A DNA stretch of 5,662 nucleotides, taken from the IMG/VR virus record IMGVR_UViG_2651869781_000001, one strand, 5' to 3'. Origin of the DNA: a virus. Taxonomy: Duplodnaviria > Heunggongvirae > Uroviricota > Caudoviricetes. Below the pieces are notes generated by a model. It did not search any database, was not told where the DNA came from, and saw only the letters and a list, made by a program, of their open reading frames with translations. Of this stretch, positions 1 through 5,662 are shown in pieces. Position 1 is the first letter of the stretch, and each line of letters begins with the position of its first letter. A program made the translations under genes and the position numbers.

Positions 1-1621
1 CTCAGCGGATATGCTCGCCAGTGCGCAGAAGGCATTTGATGAGGCGGATAAAAAATGGCAGTGGTACCAGAGCCGGAGCCAGCGCCGCGGTAAAACCTCC
101 TCTTTCCGGGCCAACCTTCAGGGCGCATGGAATGACCGGGAAAATGCCCGTCTGGGGCTGGCAGCGGCCACGCTGCAGTCGGATATGGAAAAAGCCGGTG
201 AACTGGCCGCCAGGGACCGGGCCGAACGGGACGCATCACAGCTGAAGTATACCGGAGAGGCGCAGAAGGCGTATGAGCGTCTGCTGACGCCGCTGGAGAA
301 ATATACCGCCCGTCAGGAAGAACTGAATAAGGCACTGAAAGACGGGAAAATCCTGCAGGCAGATTACAACACGCTGATGGCGGCGGCGAAAAAGGACTAT
401 GAAGCGACGCTGAAAAAGCCGAAACAGTCCGGCGTGAAGGTGTCTGCGGGCGATCGTCAGGAAGACAGTGCTCATGCTGCCCTGCTGACGCTTCAGGCAG
501 AACTCCGGATGCTGGAGAAGCATGCCGGAGCGAATGAGAAAATCAGCCAGCAGCGTCGCGATTTATGGAAAGCGGAAAATCAGTATGCGGTCCTGAAAGA
601 GGCAGCCACGAAACGGCAGTTATCTGAGCAGGAAAAATCCCTGCTGGCCCATGAGAAAGAGACGCTGGAGTACAAACGCCAGCTGGCTGAGCTGGGAGAC
701 AAAGTTGAACACCAGAAACGGCTGAATCAGCTGGCACAGCAGGCTGCGCGGTTTGAGCAGCAGCAGGGCGCGAAGCAGGCGGCAATCAGTGCCCAGGCGC
801 GGGGCCTCACCGACCGTCAGGCGCAGCGGGAGTCGGAAGAGCAGCGCCTTCGTGACGTGTACGGTGATAATCCGGATGCGCTGGCGAAGGCCACATCTGC
901 ACTGAAGAACACCTGGTCTGCGGAGGAGCAGCTTCGTGGAAGCTGGATGGCCGGTCTGAAGTCCGGCTGGGGCGAGTGGGCAGAAAGTGCGACGGACAGT
1001 TTTTCGCAGGTTAAAAGCGTGGCCACGCAGACCTTTGACGGTATTGCACAGAATATGGCAGCGATGCTGACCGGCAGCGAACAGAACTGGCGTGGTTTCA
1101 CCCGTTCTGTGCTCTCCATGCTGACAGAGATTTTTCTGAAGCAGGCGATGGTGGGGATAGTCGGGAGTATCGGCAGCGCCATTGGCGGTGCTTTCGGTGG
1201 TGGTGCGTCTGCCTCCACGGGGACGGCCATTCAGGCTGCGGCGGCGAACTTCCATTTCGCGACCGGGGGATTTACGGGGACGGGGGGTAAATATGAACCT
1301 GCGGGAATTGTTCATCGCGGGGAGTTTGTCTTCACGAAGGAAGCAACCAGCCGGATTGGCGTCGGCAACCTGTACCGCCTGATGCGGGGCTATGCGGAAG
1401 GTGGTTATGTGGGCGGTGCCGGAAGTCCGGCGCAGATGCGGCGGGCTGAAGGCATTAATTTTAATCAGAACAATCACGTGGTGATTCAGAACGACGGCAC
1501 CAACGGACAGGCGGGGCCACAGATGATGAAGGCAGTGTATGACATGGCCCGCAAGGGGGCGCAGGATGAAATTCAGACACAGATGCGTGATGGTGGCCTG
1601 TTCTCCGGAGGTGGACGATGA
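1..1621 (+). CDS. H: Tail tape measure protein, C-terminal ~540 codons (5'-partial; the frame is open from position 2 and continues upstream of the window)
   Basis: Frame-2 ORF open from the window edge (codons tca gcg gat atg...) to TGA at 1619-1621. Translation ends ...QMRDGGLFSGGGR and has the coiled-coil-like Ala/Gln/Lys/Glu-rich body and Gly-rich C-terminal segment I recall for lambda gpH. Stop overlaps the next ATG as ATGA. Gene order H-M-L-K-I-J. Confidence 0.9.
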   Translation, partial: SADMLASAQKAFDEADKKWQWYQSRSQRRGKTSSFRANLQGAWNDRENARLGLAAATLQSDMEKAGELAARDRAERDASQLKYTGEAQKAYERLLTPLEKYTARQEELNKALKDGKILQADYNTLMAAAKKDYEATLKKPKQSGVKVSAGDRQEDSAHAALLTLQAELRMLEKHAGANEKISQQRRDLWKAENQYAVLKEAATKRQLSEQEKSLLAHEKETLEYKRQLAELGDKVEHQKRLNQLAQQAARFEQQQGAKQAAISAQARGLTDRQAQRESEEQRLRDVYGDNPDALAKATSALKNTWSAEEQLRGSWMAGLKSGWGEWAESATDSFSQVKSVATQTFDGIAQNMAAMLTGSEQNWRGFTRSVLSMLTEIFLKQAMVGIVGSIGSAIGGAFGGGASASTGTAIQAAAANFHFATGGFTGTGGKYEPAGIVHRGEFVFTKEATSRIGVGNLYRLMRGYAEGGYVGGAGSPAQMRRAEGINFNQNNHVVIQNDGTNGQAGPQMMKAVYDMARKGAQDEIQTQMRDGGLFSGGGR

Positions 1622-1947
1622 AAACCTTCCGCTGGAAAGTGAAACCCGGTATGGATGTGGCTTCGGCCCCTTCTGTAAGAAAGGTGCGCTTTGGTGATGG
1701 TTATTCCCAGCGAGCGCCTGCCGGGCTGAATGCCAACCTGAAAACGTACAGCGTGACGTTTTCTGTTCCCCGTTGGGAGGCCACGGCGCTTGAGTCGTTT
1801 CTGGCTGAGCACGGGGGCTGGAAATCCTTTCTGTGGACGCCGCCTTATGACTGGCGGCAGATAAAGGTGACCTGCGCAAAATGGTCGTCACGGGTCAGTA
1901 TGCTGCGTGTTGAGTTCAGCGCAGAGTTTGAACAGGTGGTGAACTGA
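1618..1947 (+). CDS. M: Tail tip assembly protein M (109 aa)
   Basis: ORF 1618-1947, 109 aa (MKTFRWKVKPGMDV...FEQVVN), matching the size and sequence I recall for lambda gpM. GGAGGTGG at 1607-1614 a few nt upstream of the ATG. Start overlaps the H stop (ATGA); stop overlaps the L start (TGATG). Confidence 0.9.
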   Translation: MKTFRWKVKPGMDVASAPSVRKVRFGDGYSQRAPAGLNANLKTYSVTFSVPRWEATALESFLAEHGGWKSFLWTPPYDWRQIKVTCAKWSSRVSMLRVEFSAEFEQVVN

Positions 1948-2650: not shown

Positions 2651-3394
2651 ATGACAGAGACAGAATCAGCGATTCTGGCGCACGCCCGGCGATGTGCGCC
2701 AGCGGAGTCGTGCGGCTTCGTGGTGAGAACGCCGGAGGGGGAAAGATATTTTCCCTGCGTGAATATCTCCGGTGAGCCGGAGGATTATTTCCGGATGTCG
2801 CCGGAGGACTGGCTGCAGGCAGAGATGCAGGGTGAGATTGTGGCGCTGGTCCACAGTCATCCCGGTGGTCTGCCCTGGCTGAGTGAGGCCGACCGGCGGC
2901 TGCAGGTGCAGAGTGATTTGCCGTGGTGGCTGGTCTGCCGGGGGACGATTCACAAGTTCCGCTGTGTGCCGCATCTCACCGGGCGGCGCTTTGAGCACGG
3001 GGTGACGGACTGTTACACGCTGTTCCGGGACGCTTACCATCTGGCGGGGATTGAGATGCCGGATTTTACGCGGGAGGATGACTGGTGGCGTCACGGTCAG
3101 AATCTCTATCTGGATAATCTGGAGGCAACGGGGCTGTATCAGGTGCCGTTGTCAGCGGCGCAGCCGGGCGATGTGCTGCTGTGCTGCTTTGGTTCATCGG
3201 TGCCGAATCATGCCGCTATTTACTGTGGTGACGGCGAGCTGCTGCACCATATTCCTGAACAACTGAGCAAACGAGAGAGGTATACCGACAAATGGCAGCG
3301 ACGCACACACTCCCTCTGGCGTCACCGGGCATGGCACGCATCTGCCTTTACGGGGATTTACAACGATTTGGCCGCCGCATCGACCTTCGTGTGA
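2651..3394 (+). CDS. K: Tail tip assembly protein K, JAB/MPN (JAMM) metallopeptidase-like N-terminal domain plus NlpC/P60-like C-terminal domain. Long form 247 aa from ATG 2651; the lambda reference annotation as I recall it is 199 aa, corresponding to the internal ATG at 2795.
   Basis: ORF 2651-3394 has no stop from 6 nt after the L stop. A complete JAMM signature is visible: Glu19 in an ESCGF context (2705-2707) and His68-x-His70-x7-Ser78-x2-Asp81 (VHSHPGGLPWLSEAD, 2852-2893). A downstream Cys (VTDCYTLF) and His-rich stretch (PNHAAIYCGDGELLHH) are consistent with an NlpC/P60 fold. The internal ATG at 2795 has GGAGG at 2779-2783; the ATG at 2651 has no obvious Shine-Dalgarno sequence but sits 5 nt after the L stop. 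Confidence 0.85.
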   Translation: MTETESAILAHARRCAPAESCGFVVRTPEGERYFPCVNISGEPEDYFRMSPEDWLQAEMQGEIVALVHSHPGGLPWLSEADRRLQVQSDLPWWLVCRGTIHKFRCVPHLTGRRFEHGVTDCYTLFRDAYHLAGIEMPDFTREDDWWRHGQNLYLDNLEATGLYQVPLSAAQPGDVLLCCFGSSVPNHAAIYCGDGELLHHIPEQLSKRERYTDKWQRRTHSLWRHRAWHASAFTGIYNDLAAASTFV

Positions 3395-3963
3395 AAACGG
3401 GTGCTGAAGCCATCCGGGCGCTGGCCACACAGCTTCCGGCGTTTCGTCAGAAACTGAGCGACGGTTGGTATCAGGTACGGATTGCCGGGCGGGACGTCAG
3501 CACGTCCGGGTTAACGGCGCAGTTACATGATACTCTGCCTGATGGCGCTGTGATTCATATTGTTCCCAGAGTCGCCGGGGCCAAGTCAGGTGGCGTATTC
3601 CAGATTGTCCTGGGGGCTGCCGCCATTGCCGGATCATTCTTTACCGCCGGAGCCACCCTTGCAGCATGGGGGGCAGCCATTGGGGCCGGTGGTATGACCG
3701 GCATCCTGTTTTCTCTCGGTGCCAGTATGGTGCTCGGTGGTGTGGCGCAAATGCTGGCACCGAAAGCCAGAACTCCCCGTACACAGACAACGGATAACGG
3801 CAAACAAAACACCTATTTCTCCTCACTGGATAACATGGTTGCCCAGGGCAATGTTCTGCCGGTTCTGTACGGTGAAATGCGCGTGGGGTCACGCGTGGTT
3901 TCTCAGGAGATCAGCACGGCAGACGAAGGGGACGGTGGTCAGGTTGTGGTGATTGGCCGCTGA
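3292..3963 (+). CDS. I: Tail tip assembly protein I (223 aa): N-terminal ubiquitin-like (beta-grasp) region ending in Gly-Gly, followed by a Gly/Ala-rich hydrophobic C-terminal segment
   Basis: ORF 3292-3963, 223 aa (MAATHTLPLASPGMARICLYG...QVVVIGR), same length and sequence as recalled for lambda gpI. Overlaps the 3' end of K by 103 nt in a different frame. Purine-rich GAGAGAGG at 3273-3280 upstream of the ATG. Confidence 0.88.
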   Translation: MAATHTLPLASPGMARICLYGDLQRFGRRIDLRVKTGAEAIRALATQLPAFRQKLSDGWYQVRIAGRDVSTSGLTAQLHDTLPDGAVIHIVPRVAGAKSGGVFQIVLGAAAIAGSFFTAGATLAAWGAAIGAGGMTGILFSLGASMVLGGVAQMLAPKARTPRTQTTDNGKQNTYFSSLDNMVAQGNVLPVLYGEMRVGSRVVSQEISTADEGDGGQVVVIGR

Positions 3964-3981
3964 TGCAAAATATTTCATGTG

Positions 3982-4009
3982 AAACCGCCTCCGGGCGGTT
4001 TTGTCGTTT
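3982..4009 (+). terminator. Perfect 8-bp inverted repeat (AAACCGCC / GGCGGTTT) with 4-nt loop, followed by a T-rich tract (TGTCGTTT); terminator-like or mRNA stem-loop in the I-J intergenic spacer
   Basis: Read directly: AAACCGCC at 3982-3989, loop TCCG at 3990-3993, GGCGGTTT at 3994-4001, then TGTCGTTT. The GC core of the stem is short (5 bp), so terminator function is uncertain. Confidence 0.3.
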
Positions 4010-4011
4010 AT

Positions 4012-4015
4012 GGAG
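4012..4015 (+). promoter_or_regulatory. Shine-Dalgarno sequence (GGAG) for J, 8 nt upstream of ATG 4024
   Basis: GGAG at 4012-4015 with canonical spacing to the ATG at 4024. Confidence 0.5.
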
Positions 4016-4023
4016 CATGACGA

Positions 4024-5662
4024 ATGGGCAAAGGAAGCAGTAAGGGGCATACCCCGCGCGAAGCGAAGGACAACCTGAAGTCCACGCAACTGCTGAGTGT
4101 GATTGATGCCATCAGCGAAGGGCCGGTTGAAGGTCCGGTGGATGGATTAAAAAGCGTGCTGCTGAATAGTACGCCGGTGCTGGACAGTGAGGGGAATACC
4201 AATATATCCGGCGTCACGGTGGTGTTCCGGGCCGGTGAGCAGGAGCAGACACCGCCGGAGGGATTTGAATCCTCCGGCTCCGAGACGGTGCTCGGTACAG
4301 AAGTGAAATATGACACGCCGATCACCCGGACCATCACGTCGGCAAACATCGACCGTCTGCGCCTGACCTTCGGTGTGCAGGCACTGGTGGAAACCACTTC
4401 AAAGGGGGACCGGAATCCGTCGGAAGTCCGCCTGCTGGTTCAGATACAACGTAATGGTGGCTGGGTGACGGAAAAAGACATCACCATTAAGGGCAAAACC
4501 ACCTCGCAGTATCTGGCCTCGGTAGTGGTGGGTAACCTGCCGCCGCGCCCGTTCAACATCCGGATGCGCAGGATGACGCCGGACAGCACTACAGACCAGC
4601 TGCAGAACAAAACGCTCTGGTCGTCATACACCGAAATCATCGATGTGAAACAGGGCTACCCGAACACGGCACTGGTCGGTGTACAGGTGGACCCGGAGCA
4701 GTTCGGCAGCCAGCAGGTGAGTCGTAATTATCATCTTCGCGGGCGTATTCTGCAGGTGCCGTCGAACTATAACCCGCAGACGCGGCAATACAGCGGTATC
4801 TGGGATGGAACGTTTAAACCAGCATACAGCAACAACATGGCCTGGTGTCTGTGGGATATGCTGACCCATCCGCGCTACGGCATGGGGAAACGTCTTGGTG
4901 CGGCGGATGTGGATAAATGGGCGCTGTATGTCATCGGCCAGTACTGCGACCAGTCAGTGCCGGACGGCTCTGGCGGCACGGAGCCGCGCATCACCTGTAA
5001 TGCGTACCTGACCACACAGCGCAAGGCGTGGGATGTGCTCAGTGATTTCTGCTCGGCGATGCGCTGTATGCCGGTATGGAACGGGCAGACGCTGACGTTC
5101 GTGCAGGACCGACCATCAGATAAGGTGTGGACCTATAACCGCAGTAATGTGGTGATGCCGGATGATGGCGCGCCGTTCCGCTACAGCTTCAGCGCCCTGA
5201 AGGACCGCCATAATGCCGTTGAGGTGAACTGGACTGACCCGGACAACGGCTGGGAGACGGCGACAGAGCTGGTTGAAGATACGCAGGCCATTGCCCGTTA
5301 CGGTCGTAACGTCACGAAGATGGATGCCTTTGGCTGTACCAGTCGGGGGCAGGCACACCGAGCCGGGCTGTGGCTGATTAAAACGGAACTGCTGGAAACG
5401 CAGACCGTGGACTTCAGCGTGGGTGCAGAAGGGCTTCGCCATGTGCCGGGAGACGTCATTGAAATCTGCGATGATGACTATGCGGGTATCAGCACCGGTG
5501 GTCGCGTGCTGGCGGTGAACAGCCAGACCCGGACGCTGACGCTCGACCGTGAAATCACGCTGCCAGCCTCCGGCACCACACTGATAAGCCTGGTTGACGG
5601 GACGGGGAGTCCGGTCAGCGTGGAGGTCCAGTCTGTCACCGACGGCGTGCAGGTGAAAGTGA
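4024..5662 (+). CDS. J: Central tail fibre / tip attachment protein J, N-terminal ~546 codons (3'-partial; continues beyond the window)
   Basis: Manual translation from ATG 4024 gives MGKGSSKGHTPREAKDNLKSTQLLSVIDAISEGPVEGPVDGLKSVLLNSTPVLD... and stays open to the window end. It matches my recollection of the lambda gpJ N-terminus. It is not in the ORF track because there is no stop within the window. Preceded by GGAG and located 60 nt after the I stop, as in lambda. Confidence 0.9.
   Translation, partial: MGKGSSKGHTPREAKDNLKSTQLLSVIDAISEGPVEGPVDGLKSVLLNSTPVLDSEGNTNISGVTVVFRAGEQEQTPPEGFESSGSETVLGTEVKYDTPITRTITSANIDRLRLTFGVQALVETTSKGDRNPSEVRLLVQIQRNGGWVTEKDITIKGKTTSQYLASVVVGNLPPRPFNIRMRRMTPDSTTDQLQNKTLWSSYTEIIDVKQGYPNTALVGVQVDPEQFGSQQVSRNYHLRGRILQVPSNYNPQTRQYSGIWDGTFKPAYSNNMAWCLWDMLTHPRYGMGKRLGAADVDKWALYVIGQYCDQSVPDGSGGTEPRITCNAYLTTQRKAWDVLSDFCSAMRCMPVWNGQTLTFVQDRPSDKVWTYNRSNVVMPDDGAPFRYSFSALKDRHNAVEVNWTDPDNGWETATELVEDTQAIARYGRNVTKMDAFGCTSRGQAHRAGLWLIKTELLETQTVDFSVGAEGLRHVPGDVIEICDDDYAGISTGGRVLAVNSQTRTLTLDREITLPASGTTLISLVDGTGSPVSVEVQSVTDGVQVKV

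Follow-up and report, generated by a model that had tools for sequence, protein, structure and literature searches.

A predicted intrinsic terminator between the tail genes I and J in a lambda-like late operon

The window analysed here, a single stretch of 5,662 nucleotides, contains the tail-tip part of a lambda-like late operon, as recognized from its open reading frames (ORFs) and their translations, and raises the question of why a perfect hairpin should stand between genes I and J, and what it may do there. The first-pass annotation had described this I-J spacer as the only sizeable non-coding gap of the window, and the ORF list agrees, given that all the other junctions are tight or overlapping. 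The H and M genes overlap by 4 nt, and M and L by 1 nt, L and K are 5 nt apart, and K and I overlap by 103 nt, whereas I and J are separated by 60 nt. The genes are arranged as follows, with H, M, L, and K taken from the ORF list:

Up to 1621: end of gene H
1618-1947: M
1947-2645: L
2651-3394: K
3292-3963, + strand: I, tail tip assembly protein I, with its TGA stop at 3961-3963 (from the ORF list, the translation, and gpI in the matching phage records)
3964-4023, + strand: I-J spacer of 60 nt, formed by a leader, the predicted terminator hairpin, a U-tract, and the ribosome-binding site of J
4024-5662, + strand: 5' part of J, the central tail fibre or host-specificity protein, with its ATG at 4024 (from the translation), running off the window

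The first 546 codons of J lie inside the window, and the protein is 97-99% identical to the N-termini of lambda-type J. The identity of the window is 92-93% to many lambdoid phages and 96% at best to the chromosomes of Escherichia coli, which points to a mosaic lambdoid prophage or phage. Mosaicism is also visible in the comparison with phage cdtI (L003), in which gpI has a protein identity of only 78%, but the DNA is 99.5% identical from the last 64 nt of I through the spacer into the start of J, which places a mosaic recombination junction inside I, upstream of the hairpin. The K/I overlap (3292-3394) is read in different frames, and the start of K in the lambda RefSeq record (14276) is later than that of the 247-codon K ORF of the window, which begins directly after the 5 nt that follow L.

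The hairpin of the I-J spacer

The spacer contains the following elements, all on the strand of the late operon:

3982-3989, + strand: 5' arm AAACCGCC, with the GC core CCGCC at 3985-3989
3990-3993, + strand: tetraloop UCCG (TCCG in the DNA)
3994-4001, + strand: 3' arm GGCGGTTT, with the GC core GGCGG at 3994-3998
3999-4009, + strand: U-rich tract UUUUGUCGUUU, 3' of the GC core, the first three U of which also pair with the upstream AAA
4002-4009, + strand: tail after the 3' arm, TGTCGTTT
4012-4015, + strand: Shine-Dalgarno (SD) motif GGAG of J, 8 nt ahead of the ATG; the records of phages 21 and 434 list it as a ribosome-binding site

When checked against the letters of the window, the coordinates and sequence of the perfect hairpin given in the first-pass annotation proved to be exact (3982-4001, with an 8-bp stem and a 4-nt loop), and the GGAG motif at 4012-4015 was found where it had been placed, with the hairpin just upstream, on the late-operon strand. 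In a repeat search, the arms were recovered as 8 nt each, 100% complementary, and separated by 4 nt, and the hairpin was present as a single copy in the window, even when up to three mismatches were allowed. The stem is composed of a 5-bp GC core (CCGCC/GGCGG, 3985-3998) and three A-U pairs, and is flanked by an A-run and a U-run. Its UCCG tetraloop, which is closed by a C-G pair, fits the UNCG pattern. The stem begins 18 nt past the stop of I, and ends 10 nt ahead of the SD motif and 22 nt ahead of J. The footprint of a ribosome at a stop codon would not reach a stem 18 nt downstream, and the hairpin would therefore not be covered by the terminating ribosome.

The calculation of RNA folding energy, which had been proposed as a check, gave -13.2 kcal/mol for the 20-nt hairpin, and -15.3 kcal/mol with one more G·U pair. 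The locus has the parts of an intrinsic terminator, that is, a GC-rich stem with a 4-nt loop at this energy, a moderate, interrupted U-tract directly 3' of the GC core (UUUUGUCGUUU), and a position in non-coding sequence, beyond the reach of the terminating ribosome. The predicted strength is moderate, because the U-tract (UUUUGUCG) is interrupted, with 5 U in its first 8 nt, and the GC core is only 5 bp long, so the earlier description of a "weak" terminator is a fair one, although "moderate" would serve equally well. The antisense flank (UUUCACAU) is poor, and no terminator motif was called on the antisense strand at the hairpin.

Perfect hairpins of at least 8 bp arose in only 64 of 20000 shuffles of the 60-nt gap (0.3%). 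A strict terminator motif was defined by a stem with a GC core no shorter than 5 bp, 3-8 nt in the loop, and 5 or more T within the 8 nt past the core, with dinucleotide shuffles of the window as the background. On the sense strand, this motif matched once in the whole window, at the I-J hairpin, with an expectation of 0.14 for each strand of 5662 nt, and of 0.0015 for 60 nt. The shuffles and the motif expectation together exclude a chance origin of the hairpin. An earlier, permissive detector, based on RNAfold windows and a tail score, was discarded, as it made dozens of calls in coding sequence. Energy alone is unremarkable here, given that the 91 nt around the hairpin have an ordinary total folding energy (z = -0.98) and that the hairpin comes only about ninth among the bare 26-nt folds of this GC-rich window, and the case thus rests on anatomy, location, and the comparison with relatives. 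A standard scan for promoters and terminators missed the hairpin, because the greedy extension of the stem through G·U pairs consumes the T-run, and found no promoter match near or in the spacer. A search of the whole window against Rfam at E <= 10 returned no match overlapping the hairpin.

The strict detector was also checked against the lambda genome, where sense-strand motifs were found in four late gaps of approximately 55-64 nt, that is, D|E (6101-6114), I|J (15466-15479), J|lom (18920-18935), and lom|orf401, or lom|stf (19613-19632), while the 41-nt E|FI gap has no motif. It also found hairpins at 40597-40618 (+), between ren and ninB, and at 38606-38625 (-), which presumably correspond to tR2 and to the oop terminator, respectively.

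Other structures were recorded elsewhere in the window. The only Rfam match was a sub-threshold hit to Twister-P5 at 930-966 (+) in H (18.6 bits, against a gathering threshold of 37.6; E = 2), which is probably due to chance, as is another perfect hairpin (8-bp stem, 8-nt loop) at 1740-1763 (+) inside M. A terminator-like hairpin lies antisense to the tape-measure gene H at 418-433 (-), with the form GCCGGA-CTGT-TTCGGC followed by TTTTTCAG; its sequence is identical in phage 21 (12088-12103), and it may represent either chance or an antisense signal.

Selection on the stem and recurrence at the I-J boundary

The same 60-nt spacer is found in lambda (15445-15504), 21, 434, and cdtI, in which the stem, the U-tract, the SD motif, and the 60-nt spacing are identical to those of the window, or nearly so. 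The loop of lambda is UGCG, in place of UCCG, and the window otherwise differs at few flanking positions of the spacer. The hairpin is annotated as a "terminator" in the records of phage 21 (OL657228) and phage 434 (OL657226), annotations that come from a computational platform and have no experimental reference attached, while the lambda RefSeq record (NC_001416) has no feature at this site. In phage 21, only two terminators are annotated from cos to the side tail fibre gene (stf), that is, the I-J hairpin and one directly past J. The hairpin is real, conserved, and of a familiar type, and the records of close relatives already list it as a predicted terminator. Among 5426 complete genomes of E. 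coli, 4153 contain a match to the region that runs from the end of I through the hairpin into the start of J, often in several copies.

The first-pass annotation had held that a lack of conservation in related phages would count against the hairpin; it is, in fact, retained in relatives, with a constrained stem, and a similar architecture recurs at the I-J boundary. Selection was evaluated in 99 lambda-type loci, which were reduced to 60 haplotypes of a 240-nt segment. Only one of the 16 stem sites varies, in a single haplotype, through a C->U change in the 5' arm that maintains the pairing as G·U, and none of the eight sites of the 3' arm is variable. By comparison, variation was found at three of the four loop sites and 13 of the 28 other spacer sites (16 of 32 together), and at 41 of the 59 third-codon sites. 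The stem differs significantly from the loop and other spacer sites (Fisher's test, p = 0.0034) and from the third-codon sites (p = 5e-6). The GGAG motif of J is invariant in these haplotypes, and the loop variants found among close relatives include TCCG, TGCG, TCAG, TCTG, and TGCA. This pattern of variability indicates that the stem is under purifying selection, and is unlike that produced by hitch-hiking with a conserved start of J.

The boundary was also compared across approximately 230 loci in which the stop of I and the start of J could be resolved, taken from viral contigs, from annotated records of phages, and from a single genome for each bacterial species. I and J are 0-14 nt apart or overlap, with no hairpin, in Proteus, Morganella, Providencia, Xanthomonas, Stenotrophomonas, and others. 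Many prophages in which I and J are homologous thus lack a spacer altogether, and a terminator hairpin is therefore not needed for a working tail operon. Where a spacer of 48-77 nt is present, it contains the terminator motif and the ribosome-binding site of J alone, with stems that are unrelated between lineages, while other terminator-like hairpins are found in longer spacers:

48-77-nt class, stem CCGCC/GGCGG: lambda-type, Gifsy-1, Gifsy-2, and Citrobacter
48-77-nt class, stem CCTCAGC/GCTGAGG: Enterobacteriaceae B14
48-77-nt class, stem CCCGC-TTCG-GCGGG: L250
48-77-nt class, stem GGCCCCGC/GCGGGGCC: Ralstonia
48-77-nt class, stem GGCGCT/AGCGCC: Acinetobacter
234-260-nt class, Stx-type prophages: predicted sense terminator CAGGCAYCC-UCCG-GGRUGCCUG-UUGUUUUU, 42-52 nt ahead of J
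336-344-nt class (the 342-nt class): hairpin CCCCGGTATC/GATACCGGGG, 102-106 nt ahead of J

Seven unrelated stems are thus found at the same boundary (lambda-type, Stx-type, Enterobacteriaceae B14, L250, Ralstonia, Acinetobacter, and the 342-nt class), and all seven families have 5-7 T in the 8 nt past the core on the late-operon strand. These T-rich tails persist when the strongest hairpin is chosen by energy alone, ignoring the tail. In the distinct gaps of 40-110 nt, the motif is on the sense strand in 41 of 50, and on the antisense strand in 2 of 50. The role of a bidirectional terminator was rejected, considering the poor antisense flank in the window and the fact that only these two short gaps score on the antisense strand.

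The evidence of compensatory change is more limited. In the Stx-type stem, one pair is U-A in four sequences, C-G in five, U·G in one, and mismatched in one. Formal covariation within the homologous classes is thin, with one pair altered on both sides and a score that is equalled or exceeded in 35 of 500 shuffles. Considering the wobble pairs, four haplotype groups of the stem pair only in the RNA of the sense strand, as against one that pairs only in the antisense RNA. The pairs were counted per class, because a combined MAFFT alignment set the stem classes out of register, and these counts are statistically weak. Structure rather than sequence is maintained, with a constrained stem, one compensatory pair, and seven unrelated stems, alongside weak covariation statistics, and the strength of the argument lies in this recurrence and in the site-specific constraint, rather than in covariation.

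Several other features were noted in the loci compared. The 336-344-nt class is common, and its hairpin scores as bidirectional in one locus (L205). The Stx-type spacer has an extra hairpin past I, which has the form of a terminator with a T-run when read on the opposite strand. Apparent gaps of 65-104 nt in several beta- and gamma-proteobacterial loci were left out of the count of real spacers, as at least those of 65-68 nt look like the result of mis-called GTG or TTG starts of J, being Gly-rich and coding-like. In addition, short contigs that match lambda-type J with 97-98% protein identity are present in many assemblies of unrelated bacteria (L012-L020, L027-L030, L046, L047, L051, and others), such as Neobacillus, Kitasatospora, Shewanella, Bradyrhizobium, and Paenibacillus. 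Many of these contigs have a spacer identical to that of lambda, and the names of several give a coverage of approximately 1-2x; contamination with lambda DNA is the most likely explanation.

Cargo genes in the I-J spacer

In some relatives, the spacer has been expanded by an inserted gene, in two arrangements:

477-nt class (L091, L095, and L122): a forward lipoprotein gene (phrog_914, E = 1.3e-30) preceded by an AT-rich leader, with the homologous hairpin directly 3' of the gene
851-nt class: a reverse-strand sodC gene, encoding a Cu/Zn superoxide dismutase (Pfam Sod_Cu, E = 3.9e-32), with its own predicted terminator on the antisense strand

The hairpin of the 477-nt class, GCCGCC/GGCGGC, has a G-C pair in place of the A-U pair of lambda, with its stem ending 24 nt ahead of the ATG of J. 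No sense-strand terminator was found ahead of J in the 851-nt class, which bears sodC. The relatives with loci of this type have J proteins that are 75-99% identical, and include L091:1024-1500 (also L095 and L122), the I-J gaps of L037, L183, and L226, and the 342-nt gaps of the L172 type.

Morons have been defined as bearing their own promoter and terminator (PMC3594210). The hairpin of the L091 type resembles moron terminators, such as those of the HK97 gp15 moron and lambda lom, in its location at the 3' end of an AT-rich region and lipoprotein gene, and this position, directly 3' of a forward cargo gene, is as would be expected of a moron terminator. The window, by contrast, has no cargo gene or promoter upstream, and its 60-nt spacer contains no ORF and no promoter match; the terminator motif stands alone, between two essential late genes. 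The source of the non-antiterminated transcription that would call for blocking is hypothetical here, given that most lambda-type phages, including that of the window, have no upstream moron.

Possible roles of the hairpin

The first-pass annotation had proposed a stem-loop of the intrinsic-terminator type on the late-operon strand, and this structural reading is upheld by the motif, the U-tract, the constrained stem, and the recurrence at the I-J boundary. With moderate confidence, we interpret the hairpin as a module for intrinsic (Rho-independent) termination that is placed at the I-J boundary, on the sense strand, and that would act on polymerase lacking Q. RNA polymerase carrying the lambdoid antiterminator Q resists such terminators and reads through them. 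The module would be made up of the GC-core stem (CCGCC/GGCGG) with its three A-U pairs, the stable tetraloop, and the U-tract. During lytic growth, the polymerase carrying Q would pass the hairpin, which would leave the late operon intact, and the action of the terminator would thus fall on polymerase lacking Q. In the lysogen, unprogrammed or moron-driven transcription would be halted ahead of J and the downstream surface and fibre genes, and the hairpin would also supply a 3' end for cargo genes inserted in the I-J slot. As a secondary role, the hairpin may block 3'-exonucleases in the read-through RNA. The structure, its strand specificity, the selection on the stem, the recurrence with unrelated stems, and the position 3' of a cargo gene are observed; that transcripts would end here, how efficiently, and to what benefit for the phage, is inferred.

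Elements of this kind are known from other parts of the lambdoid late operon. The tR' element is an intrinsic terminator of the late transcription unit, which is overridden by the Q-modified polymerase (PMC7547250). The I-J hairpin is similar to tR' as a terminator of the intrinsic type within the late unit, but tR' lies just downstream of pR', where it forms a regulatory switch point with mapped 3' ends (6S RNA and StxS), whereas the I-J hairpin lies much farther downstream, among the structural genes. No 3'-end mapping, in vitro termination assay, or mutational study of the I-J site was found in the searchable literature. Term-seq data for EHEC Sakai are reported as deposited at GEO (PMC7547250). 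Internal terminators have been recognized in the late operons of lambdoid phages of the phage L or P22 type, where their role was described as unknown, and partial termination or the stopping of spurious, non-antiterminated transcription was proposed for the intra-operon terminators of the P22-like phages (PMC8022706). The likeness to these elements lies in the presence of sense-strand motifs within a late operon that has a single promoter and is antiterminated; the differences are that the position and sequence at I|J are specific to lambda-like tails, and that evidence of selection and independent recurrence is added here.

A more far-reaching form of this interpretation, which is put forward tentatively, is that the I|J terminator is a maintained, Q-bypassable insulator that defines a reusable slot for cargo, such as phrog_914 and sodC, in the tail operon. 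Selection might, in this case, keep a terminator ahead of J so that non-antiterminated transcription, including that of morons in the slot, cannot express J and the downstream surface genes in lysogens, a possibility that we hold no more firmly. On the same tentative footing, the architecture may have emerged, or been exchanged, on seven or more occasions, with sequences that are unrelated.

The hairpin may, alternatively, act chiefly by stabilizing the RNA, in which case it would be read through, and would then form a barrier to 3'-to-5' exonucleases after cleavage in the 3.4-kb J segment. This is considered unlikely, as is its variant, to which we give the same low weight, in which the upstream head and tail message is protected, or the segments differ in stability. 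The stable stem, its purifying selection, and the wobble changes that maintain pairing only in the sense-strand RNA would all be consistent with a stabilizer, as would the location between cistrons, which is that of the known stabilizer hairpins, and the similar sense-strand hairpins in the D|E, J|lom, and lom|stf gaps of lambda. It is also established that an antiterminated polymerase would leave a terminator without a purpose during lytic growth. A barrier to exonucleases, on the other hand, can do without a U-tract, but each of the seven independent stems has kept a T-rich 3' flank on the sense strand, and, in one relative, the hairpin stands directly 3' of an inserted cargo gene, as a moron terminator would. 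REP elements, such as that of malE-malF, are multi-copy intercistronic stabilizer hairpins without a U-tract. The I-J hairpin resembles them as a stable stem-loop between cistrons, but differs in being single in the window and in retaining its U-tract, and neither a second copy in the window (with up to three mismatches) nor an overlapping Rfam family (at E <= 10) was found. True termination in the absence of Q is favoured over a pure stability element because the 3' U-tract is consistent, the motif is biased to one strand, and the hairpin stands at the 3' end of an inserted, putative moron.

A partial attenuator, at which some polymerases would stop even in the presence of Q, reducing the transcription of J, lom, and the side-fibre genes in relation to the upstream tail genes, is rather improbable. 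It would agree with the partial termination that was put forward, as one of two roles, for the intra-operon terminators of the P22-like phages (PMC8022706), and the only two terminators annotated in the structural region of phage 21 flank J. There is, however, no obvious stoichiometric step at I|J, because the products of M, L, K, and I are also needed in few copies, and many relatives in which I and J abut function without any spacer.

Still less probable is the control of the translation of J, whether through an extended helix that hides the SD motif, or through a hairpin and U-run that keep the site open or enhance its use by the binding of ribosomal protein S1. The SD motif of lambda and 21 is paired in an outer helix, formed by spacer positions 7-15 and 47-55, and has a predicted unpaired probability of 0.12-0.15, below that of 97-98% of the upstream shuffles. 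Across 31 haplotypes, this helix is 94.6% paired. In the window, however, the unpaired probability of the SD motif is 0.43, compared with 0.39 in the shuffles, and occlusion is absent from Gifsy-1, Gifsy-2, Citrobacter, the Stx-type, and most of the other lineages. The covariation of the outer helix is also not above that of the shuffles (164/500). In the Stx-type, the hairpin is 42-52 nt from the ATG, so its adjacency to the ribosome-binding site is not conserved. An SD-sequestering operator was rejected for the window, where the SD motif is no different from the shuffles, and there is no significant covariation. In window coordinates, the outer helix corresponds to 3970-3978 with 4010-4018, the occlusion of the SD motif is predicted in lambda, 21, and 434, and the ATATTTC haplotype of the window weakens it.

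Least probable of all is a neutral relic, that is, the leftover terminator of a lost moron, a recombination scar, or a chance palindrome, which would fit a slot that gains and loses cargo and the many tail operons with no spacer, but not a stem that is far less variable than the neighbouring spacer and synonymous sites while its loop and flanks vary freely, nor the matches to the spacer region in over four thousand E. coli genomes, nor the shuffles and motif expectation that exclude chance.

Terminators within antiterminated late operons are widely predicted, and that of the I-J boundary is present in lambda itself, with matches in approximately three-quarters of the complete E. coli genomes. 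What is new here is the selection on the stem at the population level, the repeated, independent terminator motifs at I|J, and the spacer as a slot for cargo. The selection on the stem, its recurrence with unrelated stems, and the link to cargo make the locus a convenient and genetically tractable test case for three roles, that is, the insulation of late genes in the prophage, the setting of transcript levels, and the stabilization of the mRNA. In practical terms, the engineering of host range through J, or the insertion of payloads between I and J, would need to consider that a predicted terminator of functional appearance directly abuts the ribosome-binding site of J. If the tentative interpretation as an insulator is correct, the I-J boundary would provide a design rule for how temperate phages tolerate cargo within their essential late operons.
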